DNA of 64,000 bases from Candidatus Woesebacteria bacterium. Its GTDB lineage: Bacteria; Patescibacteriota; Microgenomatia; UBA1400; PJMF01. The notes under the pieces were generated by a model. That model ran no database searches and was not told the origin of the DNA. It saw only the letters and a list, made by a program, of their open reading frames with translations. The DNA lies in NCBI GenBank assembly GCA_050123235.1, contig JASFHL010000003.1, positions 50,077-114,076 of the forward strand, read 5' to 3'. Made by a program: the position numbers and the translations under genes. Of the stretch, positions 7,958 through 45,715 are shown in pieces (the first letter of the stretch is position 1; the number at the start of each line of letters is the position of its first letter).

Positions 7958-10399
7958 TTAATTTATATTTACCTTATCTGTTATTTTAATAAACGATTGA
8001 ATGTGCTTATCTAGTTCAGATATAGCAGATGGTATTTCCTTATCTGCATGTAGCAAATTTGAGTAATTGCAATATTTATATAAACTAGTTAACTTTTTTA
8101 AGTCGTCATCTGATAGTTTGCTCAGTTTGCTCCTGTTAGTTACCAAGTTATTAGTAACATCCTCAAATTTGTCTTCTTTGTTCCACATCAGCAAGTCATT
8201 CTTAATGAATCTTTCGATTGCGAGGCGTAATAACTGCCCATATTTAAGAGCCAGGGCTTCCATTTTAAGAGTTCCTTTGCTTACTTCATCTGATATTTCT
8301 TTATAACAACCCTTAACTTCACTTAATACATCAAATCCAGGGTCAACAAAGATAAATCCTCCTCCAAATTCTTCTCTGTTTTTTAAGACTCCAAACCTAT
8401 TTGAGTCTGGCGAAATACATTTAGATAGGTATTTATAAAATAGTGGATGGTGAGTAAAAATAAATACCTGACTAAAATCCTTAGTTTGAGAATGAATAAG
8501 CTCAGCTAAAATTTTCAAATTCGGAGCATCTAGACTCGTAATTGGGTCATCAAAAACAAGTATCTTTGCATCCTTTGATTCAAGCTTTTTGTTTAAAGCA
8601 AAAAAGAAAGCTATTGATATTATTTGTCTTTCTCCTTCAGACAACCCTTTTTTAAACTCTCTTTTATTATTACCTTTATCAATAACTTCAAAAGAAAATG
8701 GATATTCTTTAGTGTTTGGAGCTGGTTTAATATGTTTCAGTGAAAACGCCAGTTGAAAATTTTTTAGAATCGAATCCATCTCCTTGATAATAGAAGCTGG
8801 AATTTTTTTGGCTAAGTTGTTATCTAGTTCTTGCTCAAAGACTTTAATTTCTGATTGGAGAGCTTCCTTGTTCGAGTTAACCTTATCAAACTCTTTTATC
8901 TTGTCCGTTTTTTTATCAGAAATAAATGTTATCTTTTGAATAATGTCTGTGTTCTTTGATTCTAGTGATTGTATTTCTCCTGTTATTTTTTCTTCGCTTT
9001 TATATTTATCTTGGAAATTTTTTATTAAAGTATTTTTTAACTTTCTGAGTTCTTCGAGAGAATCAGCAAATAGTTTTAAGTCAGAAGTACCTTTAAGAGT
9101 GTTTAGAATATATCTCTTCTTTTTATCTTTATCTGCAATATCTATATTTTTTAACTCTTGAGCATACTTTTTAGCCTGCTCTGTTTGATCTGCAAAACTA
9201 TTTATCTGAGTGTCCTTTTTATGATATTTTTGTTTCTCTTCAAGAGAATATATGCCTTCAATCTTGAAGTCTTGATATAGTTTTTCTAAATTGGAAAAAA
9301 TTTCGTCTCTCCTTGTAAACAACTGAGCGATTGTGCTTTTTATTTTCTCTAGCTGTTCTACAAACAAGTCAATATCATCTATGTATTTTTTCTTTTGCTC
9401 CTCGTAAGATTTATCAAAAATCTGTTTGTAATAATTTATTACCTTAGTTGCGCCACTCAAGGACTGAGCACAAAGGGGACAGTCTTTTTCTTGAGGATTA
9501 AGTATCCTCTGATAGTTAGAATCTTTTTCTAGAAAACTTTTGTGTTTCTGAAAATGTGTTTCCAGAGCCTTATCAGTTTTAACTTCAGCTTTTTGTTTGA
9601 TGCTTCTATTAAATAACTCCTTAATTCCAGGTTCATCTAATAAATCTAGGTTATAACTTATCTCATCAATCTGTTTAATATTTTTAATGAAATCTATTTT
9701 CTTTAATAAACCTCGTATGGTTGCTAGCTTATTCTCAATTTCTTTTTGTTGTTTTTTTAGACTCTTTATTTCTTTTGCCAGTGAAGCTTGTTTTTTGTTT
9801 TTATAATTTTCGAATAATACTCTCTCTTCCTGAGTAAACGTGCTTTGTAATGCCAGCTTATTTGCTTCTAGAAATAACTTTAGTTCTTCCTTTTTTTCTG
9901 CTATCTGCTTTTTAAGTACATTAGCTTCGCTATCCAAATTGATAACCAAGTTGCCTGCATTTTGAGAATGTTGGCCTTTAAGGTTGCTTCTGGTTCCGTG
10001 TGTATGAATATTTTTGTTTACAAAGTCTATATCAAAAAATAGAATCGGGTTATTTTCCGTGGTTTGCTTATCCCAAGCTTGCTTTTGATAGGTAAAAACA
10101 GTTTGTTTTTTAGTTTTATTTATATGAACTTTCCCGTCTGGAGATTTATTTGACTTTGCCTCAATTTCTTCTGCTTCCAGAACAACCATCTCTGGATGTT
10201 TTTCTTCAATAGTTTCTACCCCAACCAAATCTTTTAATATTTCGCATACAGTTGTTTTTCCTGAACCATTTTCGCCAAAGAATAAGTTGAAGGGGCCAAA
10301 AACACATTCGTCAAGTTTTGCATTTTTACAGAAAGCATCCCATTTAAAATCTGTAAATGATTTATATTTAGTGATTTTATTTATCTTTTTTATCTTCAT
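7958..10399 (-). CDS. rloC: RloC-like anticodon-nuclease-family ATPase (PrrC homologue with Rad50-like coiled-coil/zinc hook)
   Basis: 813 aa; N-terminal Walker [10 protein letters not shown], long coiled-coil with central CPLC zinc-hook-like CxxC, distal [11 protein letters not shown] (Walker B/D-loop), C-terminal extra domain; embedded between hsdR and hsdS. Confidence 0.55.
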
Positions 10400-10400
10400 G

Positions 10401-11612
10401 TCAATTTACTCTCAACTTCCCACTCATTAGTCTTGGTAATAAAGAGCCACGTATTGATGATAATTTTTCGTTTTCCAAGGCATTTATTTTAATTTGCTGA
10501 AATATGGGTTCCATCGAATTGTGAAACTTTCGTATCAATGCTGTTTGAGGTGATTTTAATTTGTAGTTTCGAATAGCATCAATTTGAACTCGTTGTCTCC
10601 CAGAGCTTCCGACCATGCTTTTAATTGCATGTTGTCGAAATTGCTCATTCCTTACTAAGAAATAAACATATTCTCTATACTGATTGTCGTTAGGTCTGAA
10701 AACTATATATTCCGTGGAACCAAAAGCTAGCTCACCAGCTTCTAAGAAGCTTACCAGGGCACTTTTGCCATTCTCTAAGCAGGGGGTGATTCTGGCCATT
10801 AGTGAATCACCGTTCCTGAATTTTGAACCTCCTTTATAAGGTTTGCTAATCTGAGAGGAAACCCACATTCCTTGTTCTGGTAAATCTTTCATCTCAACAT
10901 ATTTGGTAGTTTCTCCTTTTTTTAAACTCTCTCTAGGATTCAATTCAATAAGACTTTCTAGTGCTATCGCGCCTTCCAAGGCTTCTGAATCCACAAACCA
11001 ATTCTTAAACAGAGCCTTACCCATTTCCTCCAGGGTCTGATTCGTCTTTCGATTTAATTCAATTTTTTCATCGAGAGAGCCCAAAACAGAAGCTATCTTT
11101 AATTGCTCATCATAAGACGGTAACAAAACCCTTACTTTTCTGAACTCCGACTGTCTTATGCCTTTTACAACTGAGCCAGTAGCTCTAGAAACAAGCTCTT
11201 GTTGTCCTATGTATGAAAGCAAGTAATATTTAAGAAAAGTATTGTCTAGTTCACCGTCTTTTCCCCGTAAAGTTAACAGCCTTTGGGCTAAACCTATATT
11301 TGCAGTATCAAGCTGAGCAACTTCACCTAAGGGAGCTTCTGTAGTTATTACAACGTCTCCTTTTTTTGGCAATCCTCTTGTCATCCAATTTTTCCAAGTT
11401 TCTTTGGTAATATACTCAGGATTGGAATAATCTATCCTTCCCGCCTTAACAACCTTTGCAGTCACAAGAGGTATCCCTGAATTTGTTTTTGGAGGTGTCT
11501 TGCCTCTGTAGTCAATAATTTTATCCAAGACATCAACGGATTTTACTATTCTCCAACTTTGGGGAATCTCACCAATTTCTGTTTGTTTGTAGTTAGTTTG
11601 TTGTTTAGTCAT
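10401..11612 (-). CDS. hsdS: type I restriction-modification specificity subunit
   Basis: 403 aa, two target-recognition domains separated by conserved central/terminal coiled repeats (LPSYDEQLKIASVLGSLDEKIELN ... LLPRLMSGKL). Confidence 0.85.
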   Translation of the reverse strand: MTKQQTNYKQTEIGEIPQSWRIVKSVDVLDKIIDYRGKTPPKTNSGIPLVTAKVVKAGRIDYSNPEYITKETWKNWMTRGLPKKGDVVITTEAPLGEVAQLDTANIGLAQRLLTLRGKDGELDNTFLKYYLLSYIGQQELVSRATGSVVKGIRQSEFRKVRVLLPSYDEQLKIASVLGSLDEKIELNRKTNQTLEEMGKALFKNWFVDSEALEGAIALESLIELNPRESLKKGETTKYVEMKDLPEQGMWVSSQISKPYKGGSKFRNGDSLMARITPCLENGKSALVSFLEAGELAFGSTEYIVFRPNDNQYREYVYFLVRNEQFRQHAIKSMVGSSGRQRVQIDAIRNYKLKSPQTALIRKFHNSMEPIFQQIKINALENEKLSSIRGSLLPRLMSGKLRVN

Positions 11613-12360
11613 TTCTGCTTATTAAGTCATAGGCTAGACTTGCCAATGATATGTAATGAATAGCCAAGTTCTTATCTAATTTTGTTGCTGGAGTATGTGA
11701 TTTTTCATTTCTTAAAAACTGTATAGCCATGTGTAAAAATTTAATCCCTTCGAAAAAATCCCTCTCTGCGTCATCTTTTGGCAAATGTCCAAATATTTTT
11801 TGGTAGTTACTTTTGTTAAAAGCATCTGTAGCTTTTTCTTTACCTGTAATATCTTTTAGTTTTTTTCTTACCACTTTGTAGGCTTCTTCAACCGCATTAA
11901 AATAATGACCATCGTTTAGTAAATTTTGAACATGATTAAAAATCTCATCTTGAAGCGTAATAGTGATATTCCCATTTTTGAAACTTGCTTTAAGCGCAGC
12001 CTCTTCTTTAATTGTTGTTTTACCAAGCAATCTTTGGGCAATCTTATTACCAGCATTTACTCTTGCCTTTGGAAAATCGTCTCTGTTGAGATTTTCTACT
12101 AAAATTTGAGTTTCAATATAAGAAATCAGTTTAAGAATGCTTTTGGCAACAGTGGTGTCATCGGCAGTGGACCAAAAACCCCGCATTCTATTAGCCTTTG
12201 AACCGCTAGCATAGTTATATTTCTGGCTATAAATTTTAATCTTCAGGTCATCTCTAAAAAACTCTCCCATTGTCCTGTCTGAGAAATTCAAAACATATCC
12301 ACTCTCCATCTGAAAAAGCTTTTCTAAGATTTGTTTTTCGTTTGTCGTTAAATTAGCCAT
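11605..12360 (-). CDS. HEPN-like (Rx4H motif RNEKSH) Abi_C/TIGR02391-like protein embedded in R-M operon
   Basis: C-terminal helical region with FLRNEKSHTP; 8-nt overlap with hsdS start and 2-nt gap to hsdM stop. Confidence 0.45.
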   Translation of the reverse strand: MANLTTNEKQILEKLFQMESGYVLNFSDRTMGEFFRDDLKIKIYSQKYNYASGSKANRMRGFWSTADDTTVAKSILKLISYIETQILVENLNRDDFPKARVNAGNKIAQRLLGKTTIKEEAALKASFKNGNITITLQDEIFNHVQNLLNDGHYFNAVEEAYKVVRKKLKDITGKEKATDAFNKSNYQKIFGHLPKDDAERDFFEGIKFLHMAIQFLRNEKSHTPATKLDKNLAIHYISLASLAYDLISRND

Positions 12361-12362
12361 AT

Positions 12363-13901
12363 TTATAAATCAAATCCTACTTTTGCTAAGTTCTCTTTAA
12401 TTTTCTTTTCTAACTCTTTAGACTCTTTGAATTGTTGACTTAACTCATTTGTGAGTCTTTTCATTTTCTCCTCAAACACCTCGTCATCTTCCATCTCAAA
12501 ATCTGTACCTACATAACGACCAGGAGTTAACACAAAACCATTCTTTTCTACTTCTTCAGTTTTGGCAGCCTTACAAAAACCCTTAACATCTTCATACTTG
12601 CCATTCTTATTTCTCCAGTTGTGATAAGTGTCAGCAATTCTTTGTAGCTCTTCTTCTGTCAACTCTCTATGCCTTCTATCTATCATCTTGCCTAATTGGC
12701 GAGCATCAATAAAAAGAATTTCATCGTGGCGGTCACGGAATTTGTGGTTATATCTATCTCTACTTACAAACCACAAAGAAGCGGGAATGCCTGTTGTGTA
12801 AAAGAGTTTATCTGGCAAGGCCACAATACAGTCAACCAAACCAGCCTTGATTAAACTTTTTCTAATCTTTCCCTCATTAGAAGTATTGGAAGATAAGGCC
12901 CCATTGGCCATGACAAACCCAGCTATACCTTCAGGGGACAAATGATGAATAAAATGCTGAATCCAAGCATAGTTGGCATTTCCTGTTGGAGGCGCACCAT
13001 ATTTCCAGCGCACATCGTCTCTTAGCCTCTCTCCACCCCAATCACTATCATTAAAAGGAGGATTAGCCAAAATAAAGTCTGCTTTTAGGTCCTTGTGTTG
13101 GTCATTATGGAAACTGTCTGCATCGGAAGTACCAAGGTTACCCTCAATTCCTCTAATAGCCAGATTCATCTTACAAAGGCGCCAGGTAGTAGGGTTGCTC
13201 TCTTGCCCATAAACTGAAATATCGCCAGTCTTTCCTCCATGCTCTTCTACAAACTTCTCACTCTGCACAAACATACCTCCAGAACCACAACAAGGATCAT
13301 AAACTCTGCCCTTGTAAGGCTCTATCATCTGAACCAGAAGTTTAACTACTGAGGCTGGAGTATAGAACTCACCACCACCCTTACCTTCTGCACTAGCGAA
13401 TCTCCCAATAAAATACTCATAAACTCTGCCCAATATGTCTTTAACCTTAGCTTCTTTATCTCCTAAACCTAGAGAGCTGAAAATATCGATAATCTCTCCT
13501 AAGCGCTGTTTGTTAAGGTCTGGTCTGGCAAATCTTTTTGGAAGTACGCCTTTGAGAGTAGGGTTGTCCTTCTCAATGGCTATCATGGCATCATCAACAA
13601 GCTTACCTATCTCTGGTTTCTTAGCATTTTGCTTTAAATAATCCCAACGAGCCTTTTCTGGTACCCAGAAAGCATTTCTAGCTTTGTAAGCATCTTTATC
13701 TTCCCATTCACCATCAAAAGCGTCTTTGTCAGCCTTAATTGCTTGGTAGATATCTTCAAAAGAGTCTGAAATGTATTTGAGAAATATCAAACCCAAAACT
13801 ACATGCTTATACTCGGCTGGGTCCATATTGTTACGCATTTTATCTGCGGCGGCCCACAACTTTTTTTCAAAGCCAAGATTGGCTGTGGTTCTTTTTGTCA
13901 T
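12363..13901 (-). CDS. hsdM: type I R-M DNA methyltransferase subunit (N6-adenine)
   Basis: NPPF motif (ILANPPFN), AdoMet motif, conserved HsdM N-terminus [16 protein letters not shown]; ORF-track start 13991 is a 30-aa over-extension that runs into the upstream HTH gene, so start set at 13901. Confidence 0.85.
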
Positions 13902-13929
13902 AATTTTCTTAATTCTCTTTTTATTATTT

Positions 13930-14109
13930 TCAACTATTTTCTTTAAGATATTTTTTAATATCTTCTTGGCGATAACGTCTATCACCAACACCCTTACGAC
14001 TTCCGATTCTGACTGCCTTTAATTTACCTTGATTATCCCAACGTCTTAGCGTTTCTGTGTTTACTTTTAATAATTCAGCTGCTTCTTTTATTGTTAGTAA
14101 TTTCTTCAT
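13930..14109 (-). CDS. excisionase/MerR-like HTH DNA-binding protein (59 aa, below ORF-track cutoff)
   Basis: [36 protein letters not shown]...; paralogous to 15793..16017; first gene of the R-M operon. Confidence 0.5.
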
Positions 14110-14202
14110 ATCAGTGATTCCTCATTGATTAGTGAATTCCATTTAATTATACATCCCTTCTTGTGTATTTGAAATGATAACAGTAAAATATAACTACAAA
14201 AT

Positions 14203-14308
14203 CAGAGCTGCGAAACTATAGCCTTTGGCGTGTCTTGAACCCAAAAAGGGGCGACTCTCGTAGGGTTCAAGGCTTCGCAGCTCTGAATACTGGGGGTCGT
14301 CCCTTTTT
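14203..14308 (+). ncRNA. candidate structured RNA/DNA element: nested stems plus pseudoknot-type pairing
   Basis: P1 14203-14214/14274-14285 (12 bp perfect), P2 14233-14242/14263-14272, loop 14243-14255 complementary to 14296-14308 (13 bp with one G.U, wobble only valid for plus-strand RNA). Confidence 0.3.
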
Positions 14309-14338
14309 ATTAATTTTGGATGGCCCAGAAAGGTAATC

Positions 14339-14674
14339 ATGGGCCTATTTTTTAAATCTGACGAAGAAAAGAAAAAAGAAGAGAAAGCAAAGCTTGAAGC
14401 AGTTCAAAAGCAAACTAATAAACTACTTCAAGGCTTAGGCTTAGACTTTGACAACTATTCTGAAGACAATTTAGAAGAAAAAAACAAAAACGATATTACA
14501 GCTATTGCTAAAACCACGGGTATAGGTGCAGCTGGAGAGCTTCTCTCTTCATTTAATATGTCCAACTATGAAAAAATCGCTACAACTCACCTAGGCACGC
14601 TTATAAAACAAAATTGGATCATCATCCGTCAACTCGAGTTAATCACTAGATTTCTTAATAAAACAGAAAAATAA
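14339..14674 (+). CDS. hypothetical protein
   Basis: ORF track; AAAGG SD upstream. Confidence 0.4.
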   Translation: MGLFFKSDEEKKKEEKAKLEAVQKQTNKLLQGLGLDFDNYSEDNLEEKNKNDITAIAKTTGIGAAGELLSSFNMSNYEKIATTHLGTLIKQNWIIIRQLELITRFLNKTEK

Positions 14675-14838
14675 ATGTAACTTTACTTGACATCGCAATG
14701 TTTCTTGAATAACCTAAGAATAGGTATAGTTTCAGTAAAAGGTCTAGGTCTAGCTATTGTTGCTGGGCCTTTTTGTTTCTAGGCATAGTGGAGGGTGAGA
14801 TTCCCACCGAGGTTTGATTTTATCTCTGGAGGGAATCT

Positions 14839-15585
14839 ATGTTATATAACAAATCAAATAAAAGGCCTGTCGGTTGGTGCTTAATTCCACCCGAAGTTAT
14901 GGCAAGAAATGATTTATCTAATAGTGAAAAGCTTTTACTAGGTAGAATTAATGGTCTAAGGAATGAGAAAGGTTACTGCTATGCAACTAACAGATGGTTG
15001 GGAGAACAAATCGGATTACAAGAAGGAACTATTTCCAATATTATTAGTTCTTTAGTAAGAAAAGGTTTAATTGATAGAAAAATCATAAGAGATGAAAATA
15101 AGGAAGTTATCGAAAGGCAACTTTACCCTATTGAAATTACACAATGGATATCTGCTAAAACAAAGCTAACTCAATCTAGCCACGAAATAATTGATACCCC
15201 TGTCCATGAAAACGTTGAAGGTAGTATTAGAGATTTTAGTAATAGATATAATAATAATGGTAAGGCAAAGCCTTACACAAAAAGTGTTTTTGAACATATA
15301 GAAGAAAATCCTAGTATATACGAAGAAGTTAATACTGCTATCGACTACTACATTAATAACTACCAATGCCTTATAAGGAAAATGCACCCAAGAATTACTT
15401 TGGATCAATGGTCATCGGTTAAATATGGATTTGAGCTTATTGCTGGAGAATACACTCCAAGCATAGAAGAGTGGGAGAAAATGATAAACAAATGGTTTGA
15501 TATGAATATCCGTACAGATTACAACATCATCCATTTTAGTACGGGAGATTTTATTAAAAATAGGTATTTTGAAGAGTGTTACTAG
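14839..15585 (+). CDS. HTH_36-type winged-helix protein (plasmid/phage replication-initiator-like)
   Basis: N-terminal LSNSEKLLLGRINGL...GYCYATNRWLGEQIGLQEGTISNIISSLVRKGLIDR pattern; GGAGGG SD. Confidence 0.5.
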   Translation: MLYNKSNKRPVGWCLIPPEVMARNDLSNSEKLLLGRINGLRNEKGYCYATNRWLGEQIGLQEGTISNIISSLVRKGLIDRKIIRDENKEVIERQLYPIEITQWISAKTKLTQSSHEIIDTPVHENVEGSIRDFSNRYNNNGKAKPYTKSVFEHIEENPSIYEEVNTAIDYYINNYQCLIRKMHPRITLDQWSSVKYGFELIAGEYTPSIEEWEKMINKWFDMNIRTDYNIIHFSTGDFIKNRYFEECY

Positions 15586-15792
15586 AAACGTAGTATTTTA
15601 ACGAACTTTACTCATTAATGAGTCTTTTAAAAGAAGAGTCAAAACGCTGATTTTAAGGCTAAAAGCAAGAGTATCCTTGTTTATGAATTAATCACGAATC
15701 AATTTTGATAACCCAGCTTATGTCAATCCTTAAATCATAAGGAGAGATATAACAAAGAAAAATGCGTCAAATATGAGAGACCCATCCAGTTT

Positions 15793-16017
15793 TTAAGATG
15801 ATTTCTGCGAATCCTGAGCACCCCCATCTACGCCAGATTCATCGATAAATATCTTAAGATCAGACTCAGAGAAACGATATTCACCCTTACCACTATCTCC
15901 AGGGAGCTTAATAAACTTTATTTTCCCATCACGACACCAACGTCTAACCGTTTCTGGATTGACGTTAAACATTACTGCTACATCTTCGATAGTTTTGTTG
16001 TAGGTAAGTTCACTCAT
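15793..16017 (-). CDS. excisionase-family HTH DNA-binding protein
   Basis: VAVMFNVNPETVRRWCRDGKIKFIKLPG typical excisionase/MerR-type HTH. Confidence 0.55.
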   Translation of the reverse strand: MSELTYNKTIEDVAVMFNVNPETVRRWCRDGKIKFIKLPGDSGKGEYRFSESDLKIFIDESGVDGGAQDSQKSS

Positions 16018-16329: not shown

Positions 16330-16494
16330 ATGAAAAAAATAATAGGTTATTCTCGCATATCAAGTATAAAACAGTTATCTGACAATCAACTAGCTAAAAG
16401 TCAAAAAGAACTGGTTGCTGAATATGTGAATAAAAATAGATGCAAATTAATAGTGACGAATAACGATAGATTTTGCAGAAAGGGAATGAAATGA
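16330..16494 (+). pseudogene. serine-recombinase N-terminal fragment (54 aa) directly upstream of full-length recombinase
   Basis: MKKIIGYSRISSIKQ.. mirrors catalytic N-terminus (xxGYxRVSTxxQ); stop overlaps recombinase ATG (ATGA). Confidence 0.4.
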
Positions 16495-17996
16495 AAAAAG
16501 CAGTTGTCTATGCCCGAGTTTCAGACCCAGGACAAGTTGGAGGTTTGTCACTCGATGTTCAAAAGGAAAAGTGTGCAGAATGGGCAAAGAAAAATAAGTA
16601 TCAAGTAGTCGGGGTATATGAGGATGGTGGCAAAACAGGAACTAAAACAGTAGGTCGTGAAGGTTTAGAAGATATGATTATTCAATGTCAAGAAGAAAGC
16701 ATAAATGTGGCTTTGGTGATAGATACAGACAGAATTGCTAGAAACGAATTTGATCATTATAAAATCGTACACATTCTTAGGGAAAGTAACACTCAACTAG
16801 TAGCAATAAACCAACCAATGATAGATGATTCTGCAGAAGGTAAGCTCATGGAAGGCATGTTAGCCAGTATTAATGCCTTTTATAGTCGTCTAACAGGTCG
16901 CAAGGTTAAAAAAAGTCTAGAGAAGAAGCTCAAGGATGGTGATTGGCCTGGTTGGGCTCCTCTTGGTTATAAGAATGTTAATCTAGGCTCAGAAGACAAA
17001 CCCCATCGTGTTATTCAAGTTGATGAGGATAAGAGTTCCCTCATTAGTGAGTTATTTAAACTTTACTCTACGGGTAGCTATTCGGTTGACGAGCTAGTAG
17101 ATCATATAAACAAGAGGGGTCTAAGAAGCAAAACAGGCAAAAAAATGTATCGCAGTATTGTTTATGAGATGCTTAAAAACCCTTTCTATATCAGCTGGAT
17201 GAAATATAACGGTCAAACTTATAAAGGAAAACATAAAGCCTTAACCACACCAGAAATATTTGAAACCTGCCAGAAAATCATGGATCGGCACAACCATAAT
17301 GCCTGCAGAAGAAGAAAGTACAAGTGGCTTTTAAATGGTTTTGCTTATTGCCAAGAGTGTAATGCAAGACTTTATGGAGATAGGGTTAATGCGAAAAATA
17401 AGGCCTATTATCACGGCAACTCTAGAAGTGGTTGTAGTCACTACATTCCTTTAGATGAGCTTGAAGACGCTGTAGCAGACGAATTTAAGAAGATCGAGTT
17501 ATCAAAAGAGTTTATCCAAGCAGTTTTAGATAAAGCTAGAGAGCTTATCAAACAGTCTAGAGACTCCAGAACATCTGAGATAAACGGCGTGAGAAACGCT
17601 ATCAAAAAATTAGAAGATAAACGCAATATTCTTGAAGATAATCTCTTGGACCAAACCATTGATAAAGAGTCATTCAAGCGTAAACATCAAGACCTTAATT
17701 TTCAAATTCAAAACTTAGAGAATGATATAGCTACTATTGAAAACCAGAGAGGCTTTGATGTTGATGTGATAGAGGAGGTCTTAAAGCTCACCAACAACAT
17801 CTATGAGGTCTATTGTGATGCTGGCTTTGAAGCCAAGCGCCATTACTTAGCTATTTTCTTTGAGAGATTTGATATTAAAGACAAAAAGGTGGCAAAAGTT
17901 ACCTACACACCACTCTTTAAAAAGCTACTTGACTCGAGGAAAGTTAGAGTAAGTAGTAACTGGCTCCCCAGGTGGGACTCGAACCCACAACCTTGA
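16491..17996 (+). CDS. large serine recombinase (resolvase/invertase N-domain + recombinase domain + zinc ribbon + coiled coil)
   Basis: MKKAVVYARVSDPGQ catalytic motif, CQECNARLYGD zinc ribbon; likely start ATG 16491 (track start is TTG at 16473); 3' end overlaps tRNA-Asn. Confidence 0.85.
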   Translation: MKKAVVYARVSDPGQVGGLSLDVQKEKCAEWAKKNKYQVVGVYEDGGKTGTKTVGREGLEDMIIQCQEESINVALVIDTDRIARNEFDHYKIVHILRESNTQLVAINQPMIDDSAEGKLMEGMLASINAFYSRLTGRKVKKSLEKKLKDGDWPGWAPLGYKNVNLGSEDKPHRVIQVDEDKSSLISELFKLYSTGSYSVDELVDHINKRGLRSKTGKKMYRSIVYEMLKNPFYISWMKYNGQTYKGKHKALTTPEIFETCQKIMDRHNHNACRRRKYKWLLNGFAYCQECNARLYGDRVNAKNKAYYHGNSRSGCSHYIPLDELEDAVADEFKKIELSKEFIQAVLDKARELIKQSRDSRTSEINGVRNAIKKLEDKRNILEDNLLDQTIDKESFKRKHQDLNFQIQNLENDIATIENQRGFDVDVIEEVLKLTNNIYEVYCDAGFEAKRHYLAIFFERFDIKDKKVAKVTYTPLFKKLLDSRKVRVSSNWLPRWDSNPQP

Positions 17997-18035
17997 AGTT
18001 AACAGCTTCCTGCTCTGCCATTGAGCTACCGGGGA
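17961..18035 (-). tRNA. tRNA-Asn (anticodon GTT), CCA encoded
   Basis: hand-folded: acceptor TCCCCGG/CTGGGGA, D-arm GCTC-AATGGCA-GAGC, anticodon loop CTGTTAA, T-arm GTGGG-TTCGAGT-CCCAC, discriminator G; one G.A at top of anticodon stem. Confidence 0.65.
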
Positions 18036-44575: not shown

Positions 44576-45715
44576 CTACTGAATCATACCTGAGTAGGTG
44601 GGCAGCTCGAGCAGAGCCTGCTGCGGGATGTCAAGCAGGGTGACGCTGACCCAACCAATTCTCTTGTCGGGCGCATCATACAGGAGTACGCGCGCGCCGT
44701 TATCCGAGAGCTGGACGGGGTATACACCGATAAGGCTCCCATTGAACAATCCAGTAGGTTGGCTGGATTCGGGAGTTCTATAGGTGACAGCGCCGCGCTT
44801 ACCACCTTCCACCCAATCCACCGCGTACAAAAAGCCCTGCCAGCGGAATGAGAACCCGCCGGCCGCGCCGCCCACGTTGTCTACGCGAGCGCAGGCAGCA
44901 TTGGGCCCTGTAACGAGCATAAAGCTCCCGTTCGCAAAAGAACCAGCAAACTCACCCAACGACAGCGGCCCCTCGCAGTCAAGGTCATATGAGACCTTAC
45001 TGCTCAAGAAAAGCCCCGAATAAAACGTCCCCTGCACGACTTCCGGGTAGGTATGTTTAGGATCCGGATATGTCTGATCCGGCCCCCAGAACATTACTGA
45101 CACTGAGTGGGCCGCCTTCGTGCTGGGGTCGCCCGGGGTGTCTGGCGCGAGATCTGGCTGAAAACAAAAGCCGTACTCATCGCACTCGACATTGAACCTG
45201 TCGTCACGCACGCCGCCCGACCAACCGGAAAAGGCAAAGGGCTCCAGCCCCGCCTCTCCCCGTCCCTCGTCCGAGTACGGAAAGGGGCGGTCGTTCCCCC
45301 AGTACGCTTCGCGGGAGGGCAGAGCGGCGGTGGCGTCGGCGTCTGCCTCGGGCGCAGGGTTGTCGGCGAGTTGGGGGGTGGCGGTCGGTGTGGGCGTGTC
45401 AGCGGGCCTGGCCGACTGCGCAGTCGCCGCCAGCTCCATGCCCGACAGCGCCCCCTCGGGCCCGCCACCGTCACCCAAAAACGCCTGTTGCGTGGCTAAC
45501 TCGGCCGACAACTCCTCCACCCGCCCAGCAGCCACCACGCGCGTGGCGACCATCTCGGCCGTGGCCGTGGCCTCAGCCCGGGCAACCTCGTCGGTTGCCC
45601 TGACCTGGGCCGTAGCCAGCTCGTCACCAGCCGGCAGCGAGTTCGAGTCTTTGTTACAGCCACTGGCCACCAGCAGCAGCAGCCCAAACAACACCAAAAA
45701 AAACTTCTTATCCAT
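44576..45715 (-). CDS. lipoprotein (signal peptide + lipobox LVASGC), Ala/Thr-rich linker, unknown C-terminal domain; high-GC codon usage
   Basis: MDKKFFLVLFGLLLLVASGC; strong SD; overlapping plus-strand ORFs 45107/45192 are GC-rich artefacts. Confidence 0.65.
   Translation of the reverse strand: MDKKFFLVLFGLLLLVASGCNKDSNSLPAGDELATAQVRATDEVARAEATATAEMVATRVVAAGRVEELSAELATQQAFLGDGGGPEGALSGMELAATAQSARPADTPTPTATPQLADNPAPEADADATAALPSREAYWGNDRPFPYSDEGRGEAGLEPFAFSGWSGGVRDDRFNVECDEYGFCFQPDLAPDTPGDPSTKAAHSVSVMFWGPDQTYPDPKHTYPEVVQGTFYSGLFLSSKVSYDLDCEGPLSLGEFAGSFANGSFMLVTGPNAACARVDNVGGAAGGFSFRWQGFLYAVDWVEGGKRGAVTYRTPESSQPTGLFNGSLIGVYPVQLSDNGARVLLYDAPDKRIGWVSVTLLDIPQQALLELPTYSGMIQ

Follow-up and report, generated by a model that had tools for sequence, protein, structure and literature searches.

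LOOT RNA (Rfam RF03000), which was reported by Weinberg et al. 2017 (PMC5737381) and whose function is unknown, is the closest described system to the RNA element considered here. In the papers examined, LOOT RNA appears only as a listed motif and in one remark on its covariation; the restriction-modification (R-M) and helix-turn-helix (HTH) genes in its genomic context are not mentioned there. Our element lies in a 64,000 nt stretch of contig JASFHL010000003.1 from a Candidatus Woesebacteria metagenome-assembled genome (MAG); this whole stretch is called the window in the following, and all coordinates refer to it. The element extends over ~110 nt, from ~14196 to a U-run at 14308. It had been noticed as a group of nested inverted repeats that could form a pseudoknot (below, the original prediction). 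We find that it occupies the slot that is taken by LOOT RNA in other defence modules of bacteria from the candidate phyla radiation (CPR). With moderate confidence, and on the basis of sequence comparison, we propose that it is the leader of a gene in such a mobile module and would act in cis as a two-state terminator.

Structure of the element

All three complementarities of the original prediction were present in the window, far beyond what is expected by chance. The outer helix P1 (14202–14214/14274–14286, + strand) is perfect over 13 bp, one more than the 12 bp that had been given. Inside P1, the hairpin P2 (14232–14242/14263–14273, + strand) consists of an 11-bp stem and a 20-nt apical loop (14243–14262). 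Its core, cttgaaccc/gggttcaag (14234–14242/14263–14271), is the perfect 9-bp repeat that had been predicted, and the full 11 bp are reached via one U.G pair. The third pairing, P3, connects the P2 loop with the region 3' of P1. We confirmed its predicted core of 13 bp with one G.U pair, valid on the plus strand only (14243–14255/14296–14308). Through more G.U pairs it extends without gaps to 18 bp, such that AAAAAGGGGCGACUCUCG inside the P2 loop (14243–14260, + strand) is complementary to UGGGGGUCGUCCC (14291–14308, + strand). The latter, the proposed 3' half of a terminator, runs into a U-tract at 14304–14308 which is followed by AUU. In the minimum free energy (MFE) fold a small hairpin of 3 bp, P1a (GCC UUU GGC, 14221–14223/14227–14229, + strand), joins the nested P1/P2 fold, and the three together form a three-way junction. 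The 3' strand of P1 (14274–14286) continues the 3' strand of P2 directly with zero unpaired bases between them. The U.G and G.U pairs of P2 and P3 are possible on the + strand only.

The fold of the + strand from 14195 to 14345 had an energy of -63.5 kcal/mol compared to -40.9 ± 3.8 kcal/mol for 200 dinucleotide shuffles of the same segment (z = -5.9), none of which was as good. A loop-tail helix of 18 bp was obtained in 0 of 20,000 shuffles of the tail, for which the maximum was 16 bp. When equally spaced segment pairs from the window were used instead, 1 of 20,000 reached 17 bp.

Comparison with models of known riboswitches and other non-coding RNAs, a check named in the original prediction, yielded no family. 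Within 13000–16000 Rfam gave no match at E ≤ 10, and the element also remained without a match when the entire window was scanned at the gathering score and when L179 and L180, two further loci that are introduced below, were scanned at E ≤ 1. A look-alike of the leu/phe-leader family (E = 0.48), which scored 24.7 bits where the threshold is 70, was rejected as having the general shape of a terminator only. No tRNA or tmRNA was found at the element by ARAGORN and the Rfam tRNA models, the only such genes in the window being tRNA-Asn (17961–18035, - strand) and tRNA-Leu (32475–32544); with the ARAGORN result, tRNA mimicry was discarded as well. Further candidates that we rejected were a self-cleaving ribozyme (no hammerhead core, no Rfam match), an integron attC site (no GTTRRRY) and a retron (no reverse transcriptase gene), as well as a coding role of a 48-aa open reading frame (ORF) on the - strand, the frame of which is not kept in the homologous locus L093.

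Covariation in homologous loci

Homologues of the element were searched for in ~170 loci encoding relatives of the HTH_17 protein that is divergently encoded next to it in the window, using a covariance model built from the single window sequence (R1). This returned only two more copies, L008 and L093, both near-identical to that of the window. The former is a metagenome contig with an HTH protein 91% identical to that of the window, the latter belongs to Ca. Chisholmbacteria and its HTH protein is only 64% identical. In both, the same promoter precedes the element, which is ~90 nt away from the start of the HTH gene. Hardly any change is seen in the helices, the P2 loop and the tail of these two copies, and the differences fall in the junction, the P1a loop and the U-run. 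The sole helix substitution of L008, from C to U in P2, gives a U.G pair and thus again pairs on the + strand only.

Two diverged versions, L180/L181 (89 bits) and L179 (43 bits), were found via relatives of the nuclease encoded downstream of the element in L093. Both lie upstream of genes with an Mrr_cat domain, and the divergent neighbour in L179 is hsdM itself. The four further versions all come from Microgenomates (CPR) contigs. From the versions in the window, L008, L093, L180 and L179 we built a 5-sequence covariance model (R2), which gave no copies beyond these five when the gathered loci were scanned. Within the 64-kb window the element is single-copy according to motif and covariance-model scans. 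BLAST of the region against phage and plasmid collections gave no matches, and neither did scans of viral contigs with an exact pattern of two invariant stretches or with the downstream Mrr-type protein family. ORF111, the gene downstream of the element in the window, is an orphan and had no relatives when used as search anchor. The four distant relatives obtained with the HTH_36 replication-like protein of the window have phage-like surroundings, and the element is missing from all of them. In a long-insert subtype of the Mrr-type protein (L184) the gene follows tRNA genes, and no RNA motif is found there.

Covariation was counted in model-guided alignments of the five versions, the one for P1/P1a/P2 and the one for P3 both being fitted to the structures. 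For P1, 100% of the cells are paired and both sides have changed in 7 of 13 pairs. For P2 the corresponding values are 98% and 5 of 11 pairs; here L179 is largely strand-swapped, with 4 of 11 pairs inverted or exchanged on both sides. At the place of P1a, L180 and L179 have hairpins with sequences of their own (CUUG..CAAG and GCUUU..AGAGC, respectively). Taken jointly, the values for P1/P1a/P2 were reached by 0 of 500 shuffles, and sliding the register by 1–3 columns left 30–47% of the cells paired. For P3, in which loop and tail were anchored by hand on the common UCUC and the G-run, 90.8% of the cells are paired and 6 pairs are compensated (0 of 500 shuffles), for example by the change from CGAC/GUCG to GCAG/CUGC. 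Since P1, P2 and P3 are all kept by compensatory changes in further versions, these comparisons indicate that all three pairings are under selection, and the covariance check proposed with the original prediction came out in favour of the pairings. The junction strands in turn differ in length and sequence across the versions (AACUAUA / AACUAUAU / AAUAU / G.UAUC / GGCUAAAU...). The most conserved unpaired parts of the element are the P2 loop and the tail.

Transcription signals and downstream genes

The intergenic region between the HTH_17 gene and ORF111 comprises 229 nt and holds two back-to-back promoter-like sites. The one of the element (14161–14189, + strand) consists of TTGTGT (14161–14166), a 17-nt spacer and TAAAAT (14184–14189), which places the predicted transcript start at ~14196, 5–6 nt ahead of P1; our consensus scanner missed this site, the -35 of which matches at only 3 of 6 positions. 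The same layout, TTG(T/A)(G/T/A)N, 17–18 nt, TA(A/G)AAT, is found 8–16 nt before the first helix in L008, L093, L180 and L179. The opposing promoter of the HTH_17 gene (14146–14173, - strand; TTCAAA, 16 nt, TATAAT) was obtained with 10 of 12 matches in the consensus scan. Its -10 lies within the block TTAATTATACA, which is conserved across the loci of the HTH_17 family. No antisense promoter was found across the leader: the promoter-like sites on the - strand near the element all point away from it, toward the HTH gene.

A U-run directly 3' of the 3' strand of P3 is present in 5 of 5 versions, and in LOOT loci too. In a terminator scan the only terminator-like site was a weak local hairpin of 5 bp (14292–14305). 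The signature of an intrinsic terminator, i.e. a G+C-rich stem followed by a U-tract on the transcribed strand, is present, with a stem that is long-range, pseudoknotted and atypical. As the wobble pairs allow pairing on the + strand only and as a promoter and a U-run frame the helices, an RNA made from the + strand is the clear reading; the element is almost certainly a structured promoter-proximal RNA that works as the single-stranded + strand.

After the end of the U-run at 14308, the Shine-Dalgarno (SD) sequence GAAAGG at 14328–14333 and the ATG at 14339 follow, so that the ~23 nt given originally for the distance to this start are roughly right. No promoter-like site was found between the U-run and the SD in the window and there is no room for one, such that ORF111 must be transcribed through the element. 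In each of the five versions the distance from the U-run to the start of the downstream gene, which is on the same strand, is 20–60 nt. Conservation stops just inside the downstream ORF, and the ORFs of the window, L008 and L093 are unrelated: ORF111 (14339–14674, + strand), a 251-aa membrane protein in L008 that has nothing but MG.FFKS in common with ORF111, and in L093 a 282-aa protein with a transmembrane (TM) segment and an Mrr_cat nuclease domain. The block common to the window and L008 continues across the SD and the AUG up to codon 7 of the two ORFs (MG.FFKS) and ends there; the shared module thus has its boundary within coding sequence.

The start of ORF111 is covered by a hairpin in the MFE fold (14322–14345, + strand; stem GGCCCA/UGGGCC), with the SD in the loop and the AUG (14339–14341) partly in the stem. 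The pair G14323–C14344 is A-U in both L008 and L093, and the hairpin is not present in L180 and L179. The G-run of the tail has a C-rich partner just 5' of the SD, with the pairings CUGGG/CCCAG (window), UGGGGG/CCCCCA (L180) and GUGGGG/CUCUAC (L179), and LOOT loci have equivalents that covary. As the C-rich segment of the window coincides with the 5' half of the AUG hairpin, the tail could relay to translation, but the support for this is weak.

Relation to LOOT RNA

Against the covariance model of LOOT RNA the element stayed below the gathering threshold of 46.4 bits and gave no match even at E ≤ 10 (window) or E ≤ 1 (L179 and L180), compared to 53–88 bits for true LOOT copies (L182, L183, L017, L028) in the same kind of search. 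The two RNAs nevertheless share their surroundings. We placed LOOT loci by motif search, with the exception of L085, which was recognised from a listing of upstream sequences and has a 5' hairpin slightly off the consensus motif. In L015/L017, L085, L088, L094 and L158, LOOT RNA is oriented divergently from an HTH_17 homologue and lies ~90 nt upstream of it; in L028, L120 and L151 it comes shortly after the HTH gene. The HTH genes beside it head R-M, methylase or defence operons. Within 30–110 nt LOOT RNA is followed by genes for small membrane proteins, several with a zinc ribbon and a TM segment, or for TM+Mrr_cat proteins, and at most LOOT loci examined this downstream gene is on the same strand after the U-run. 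An equivalent promoter layout of the sigma-70 type precedes LOOT RNA in L017, L085, L088 and L094. Furthermore, the proteins encoded after the element in L093 and after LOOT RNA in L085 share 66% identity over 151 aa, and relatives of this L093 gene are preceded by the element in L179 and L180 and by LOOT RNA in L182 and L183. Homologous flanks thus occur with either RNA, and the element and LOOT RNA are therefore exchangeable within one module.

LOOT RNA also possesses a loop-tail helix. Here AAGCYCYCG... in the apical loop of the long hairpin is paired with ...GGGGRGCUU, a 3' tail which enters the U-tract. This helix was analysed in L017, L028, L085, L088, L094, L120, L125, L137, L151 and L158 (e.g. 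L017 806–926 on the - strand plus ~25 nt on the 3' side) and comprises 14 bp, with 95.5% of the cells paired and 7 compensated pairs (0 of 500 shuffles). It lies outside the 121-nt Rfam model and overlaps the inner apical helix of that model, with which it may compete.

In both RNAs we thus find the same slot, the same promoter type and an HTH_17/mad1-like operon head in Microgenomates/CPR, together with a hairpin of 10–11 bp whose ~20-nt apical loop pairs with a 3' tail leading into the U-tract, and a core CUCUCG in the loop that is paired with the G-run of the tail. The folds themselves differ. LOOT RNA is a row of four hairpins, whereas the element is a closed three-way junction with a 13-bp closing helix P1 which LOOT RNA lacks; in turn, the 5' hairpin UGCCUAAAC...GCAUGGCA, the A-rich linker and the two 3' tetraloop hairpins (GAAA, GNRA) of LOOT RNA are missing from the element. 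In LOOT RNA ~50 nt separate the counterpart of P2 from the tail, and the pseudoknot can coexist with the rest, whereas the linker of the element has 3–4 nt and P1 and P3 would exclude each other (see below). Outside every Rfam family, the element represents a new structural variant among the promoter-proximal RNAs of LOOT type in CPR defence islands.

A third conserved motif, ...AAGUACCUCUUUGUAGGAGUC...GGGCUCCUUUUUUUGUG, occupies the same slot on the opposite strand ~100–250 nt upstream of the HTH gene in L082, L083 and L084. It looks like a small RNA with a Y-shaped terminator.

A model for a two-state leader

In the model that we propose, the module consists of a type I R-M/defence operon, usually with a mad1-like HTH gene first, of divergent promoters, of the RNA, and of a variable, often membrane-anchored effector gene. 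In state A the RNA would adopt the three-way junction P1/P1a/P2, and the polymerase would read through to the downstream gene. In state B, P2 would be kept and P1 opened, and the P2 loop would pair with the 3' tail (P3) to give an H-type pseudoknot. Its second stem would abut the U-tract and act as an intrinsic terminator, such that the transcript would end at ~110 nt. In such a P2+P3 pseudoknot, loop 1 would be the A-run, loop 2 would have 2–4 nt, and loop 3 would have 17 nt including the freed 3' strand of P1. In the window and its two close relatives, the hairpin that holds the AUG would add a translational layer. We read P3 as the putative stem of an intrinsic terminator because in every version, and likewise in LOOT RNA, the U-run adjoins its 3' strand, and we infer that the RNA acts in cis.

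The two states are proposed from the geometry of the helices. Between the base of P1 and the first pair of P3 there are 4 nt (14287–14290) in the window and 3 nt in L179. Since the common 3' strand continues without an unpaired base, P2 and P1 should stack, and the short linker would have to span a stacked helix of ~24 bp. P1 and P3 would then exclude each other sterically without having nucleotides in common. That they are mutually exclusive is probable from A-form geometry, as opposed to a computed result. The classic pseudoknot of the original prediction is therefore to be modified: the RNA and the selected P3 stand, the three helices probably do not form together, and the P2+P3 pseudoknot with open P1 would alternate with the junction.

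In terms of duplex energy (kcal/mol) the competing helices are similar, with -22.8 for P1 and -22.2 (13 bp) or -27.4 (18 bp) for P3 in the window, and -24.9 versus -21.3 in L179. Un-knotted folds that contain P3 are 10–17 kcal/mol worse than the junction fold in every member. P3 is therefore sensible only as a pseudoknot with P2, and a plain two-hairpin switch, in which P3 would replace P2, was rejected on the same energies.

A number of points weigh against the two-state leader. During transcription P1/P1a/P2 form first and are very stable (-41.4 kcal/mol); as the un-knotted folds with P3 are also worse, it is hard to see how state B would be reached without a factor. A pocket for a small molecule is unlikely, because the junction bases vary between the versions. 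A loop of 20 nt that takes up a stem of 13–18 bp brings a pseudoknot to the limit of what is feasible, and the exclusion of P1 and P3 is a geometric argument. The family is small with its five distinct sequences, all compensation in P3 comes from L179 alone, and L180 has one uncompensated A.C mismatch in P3. The downstream gene of the window, an orphan, has no evident need for tight control. Finally, Rfam types LOOT RNA as 'Gene; sRNA' and not as a leader.

The island around the element

The conserved divergent neighbour of the element, the excisionase-type HTH gene (13930–14109, - strand; 59 aa), matches Pfam HTH_17 (4e-14), TIGR01764 and PADLOC mad1 (1.3e-14). It overlaps hsdM and heads a type I R-M/defence operon on the - strand, in which it is followed by hsdM, a TIGR02391/Ymh protein, hsdS and an 813-aa AAA_13 ATPase. 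The operon (7958–14109, - strand) is also MADS-like, with the mad1 match of the HTH protein and matches of the AAA_13 ATPase to PDC-S06 and mad3 (PADLOC). On the other side, the only match of ORF111 in 5.8 billion proteins was an identical sequence, and it had no match in Pfam, NCBIfam or PADLOC.

To the right of ORF111 the + strand carries the phage-type HTH_36 replication-like gene. A second HTH_17 gene (15793–16017, - strand) and a large serine recombinase gene (16473–17996, + strand) are also found in the window. The 3' end of the latter overlaps the tRNA-Asn gene by 36 nt, and the island is therefore probably integrated at this gene; rpoD lies just beyond it. Relatives of the HTH_36 protein (L003, L006, L007, L002, L179) are found in phage-like modules with SSB, ERF, PDDEXK, DUF5659 and Phage_rep_O. 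Given these neighbours, the island of the window is probably a prophage-derived or satellite-like integrative element. The original prediction had connected the element with the replication-like genes of the island. This link is incidental, as the neighbours that are kept between loci are those of the HTH/hsdM side and the next gene downstream.

Elsewhere in the window two genes have 59–65% G+C in a genome of ~34% G+C (34335–36485, + strand, and 44576–45715, - strand), with one 300-nt interval peaking at 73%. One encodes a 716-aa right-handed beta-helix/NosD-like protein, the other a 379-aa protein without Pfam match; they are not rRNA. These genes may be foreign or compositionally extreme.

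Alternative explanations

The alternative that survives best, which we consider possible though rather unlikely, is an independent trans-acting small RNA (sRNA) gene. P3 would then be an unusual pseudoknotted terminator and protect the 3' end, and the downstream gene would be reached by leaky read-through or be unrelated. A conserved promoter of its own with a U-run ~110 nt later would suit such a gene, as would the heterogeneity of the downstream genes (ORF111, 251-aa membrane protein, TM+Mrr_cat protein) and the class assigned to LOOT RNA by Rfam. The high conservation of the P2 loop and the tail would be that of a seed region. It is less easily reconciled with a same-strand gene 20–60 nt past the U-run in 5 of 5 versions and in the majority of the LOOT loci examined, in the window without an intervening promoter-like site, nor would it account for a start codon that in three versions lies in a conserved hairpin contiguous with the element. 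Moreover, the loop has no complementary target elsewhere in the window, where its only other match is on the same sense strand.

A static pseudoknot with P1, P2 and P3 formed at once, serving a structural or protein-binding role upstream of the ORF, is improbable. All three helices are conserved and covarying, and since they share no nucleotides their coexistence is not forbidden by the sequence. It is the path of the chain that argues against it: the stacking of P2 on P1 would, judged from A-form geometry, put ~24 bp (~65 Å) between the end of P1 and the P2 loop, a distance to be covered by the 4 nt (window) or 3 nt (L179) that join the base of P1 to P3. In addition 18 of the 20 loop nucleotides would need to pair.

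The original prediction had mentioned an origin or recombination site of the island as alternatives. We consider a DNA-level element, be it a single- or double-strand origin, an oriT, a recombination site or an operator array of the integrative island, very improbable, despite the perfect nested inverted repeats, the large serine recombinase at tRNA-Asn and the phage-type HTH_36 gene in the window, and the DUF5659 and Phage_rep_O-like genes ~1–2 kb downstream in L179. The constant companions of the element are the promoter, the R-M operon and the effector gene, and genes for replication or recombinases do not accompany it regularly: in L008, L093 and L180 the 1.5–2.5 kb examined on either side contained no Rep, relaxase or recombinase gene, and in L179 only replication-like genes lie downstream, with a faint Phage_rep_O match ~2 kb away. 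Since the wobble pairs are strand-specific, a double-stranded DNA site is argued against; the many G.U pairs of the + strand are A.C on the other strand and clash with a symmetric site or a cruciform. G.T wobbles are tolerated in single-stranded DNA hairpins, such that the pairs themselves would be compatible with a role as single-stranded DNA. The helix sequences of L179 and L180, however, change freely with the pairing kept and no protein-recognition sequence conserved in the arms. There are no iterons and no direct-repeat families beyond matches of chance size within 14000–14500, and a conserved promoter and U-run frame the element. Finally, a selfish miniature inverted-repeat element or a functionless chance cluster of palindromes is scarcely credible, given one copy per locus at constant distance from the same promoter, conservation that continues past the terminal repeats into the tail, pairing kept through compensation in the diverged members and no target-site duplications, even with 13-bp terminal inverted repeats around an 85-bp unit and three nearly identical versions beside HTH proteins that are 64–91% identical.

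Comparison with known regulatory RNAs

Going beyond the single locus, we tentatively suggest a second, structurally unrelated class of LOOT-type RNAs, which would serve as a bistable gate on a membrane-anchored type IV (Mrr-like) nuclease or another effector beside R-M/MADS-like operons in mobile islands of CPR bacteria. Since 2017 LOOT RNA has remained an orphan motif with no function proposed, and here a different fold is found in the same slot, both folds having a covarying loop-tail helix that abuts the U-run. As both RNAs lie between an R-M/defence operon and a gene for a membrane effector or nuclease, it is now a testable question whether they are conditional terminators of defence effectors. 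If so, two folds would have converged on one device, or diverged while keeping it, in which the 5' strand of a terminator is stored in the loop of another hairpin. This would provide a first functional hypothesis for LOOT RNA and point to RNA-level control of defence genes in very small genomes. The element would also be an example of two helices that compete sterically without shared nucleotides. If it were only a small RNA with an odd terminator, its significance would be modest, that of one more rare non-coding RNA motif. In either case it adds a covariation-supported RNA motif from candidate-phyla bacteria, the regulatory RNAs of which are almost unknown.

Leader attenuators of the pT181/pIP501 type, found before rep genes, are driven by a counter-transcribed antisense RNA, and their competing helices share a strand. 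Like them, the element would be a leader before a gene of a mobile element in which an upstream pairing would decide on a downstream terminator stem next to a U-run. Unlike them, it is without an evident antisense promoter, and its P1 and P3, having no nucleotides in common, would be in steric competition only. An antisense-controlled attenuator or a type I toxin-antitoxin system was accordingly rejected, given that no opposite-strand promoter lies across the leader and that the 48-aa - strand ORF is not conserved in frame.

In the pseudoknot platforms of riboswitches (preQ1-II, SAM-II, ZTP) a hairpin loop and a 3' tail form an H-type pseudoknot that controls downstream expression. The element resembles them in its proposed loop-tail H-type pseudoknot and in a three-way junction closed by P1. 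It differs from riboswitches in that its junction nucleotides are not conserved, a 13-bp P1 is far too stable for a ligand-tuned helix, and no Rfam riboswitch model matched. Its downstream genes are non-metabolic and belong to no common pathway (an orphan ORF, a membrane protein, membrane-anchored Mrr-type nucleases).

The element resembles canonical intrinsic terminators in that a U-tract comes immediately behind a G+C-rich helix and that the U-run pairs with a 5' A-run. In contrast to these, the two strands of its stem are 30 nt apart, and the 5' strand lies inside the loop of another conserved hairpin.

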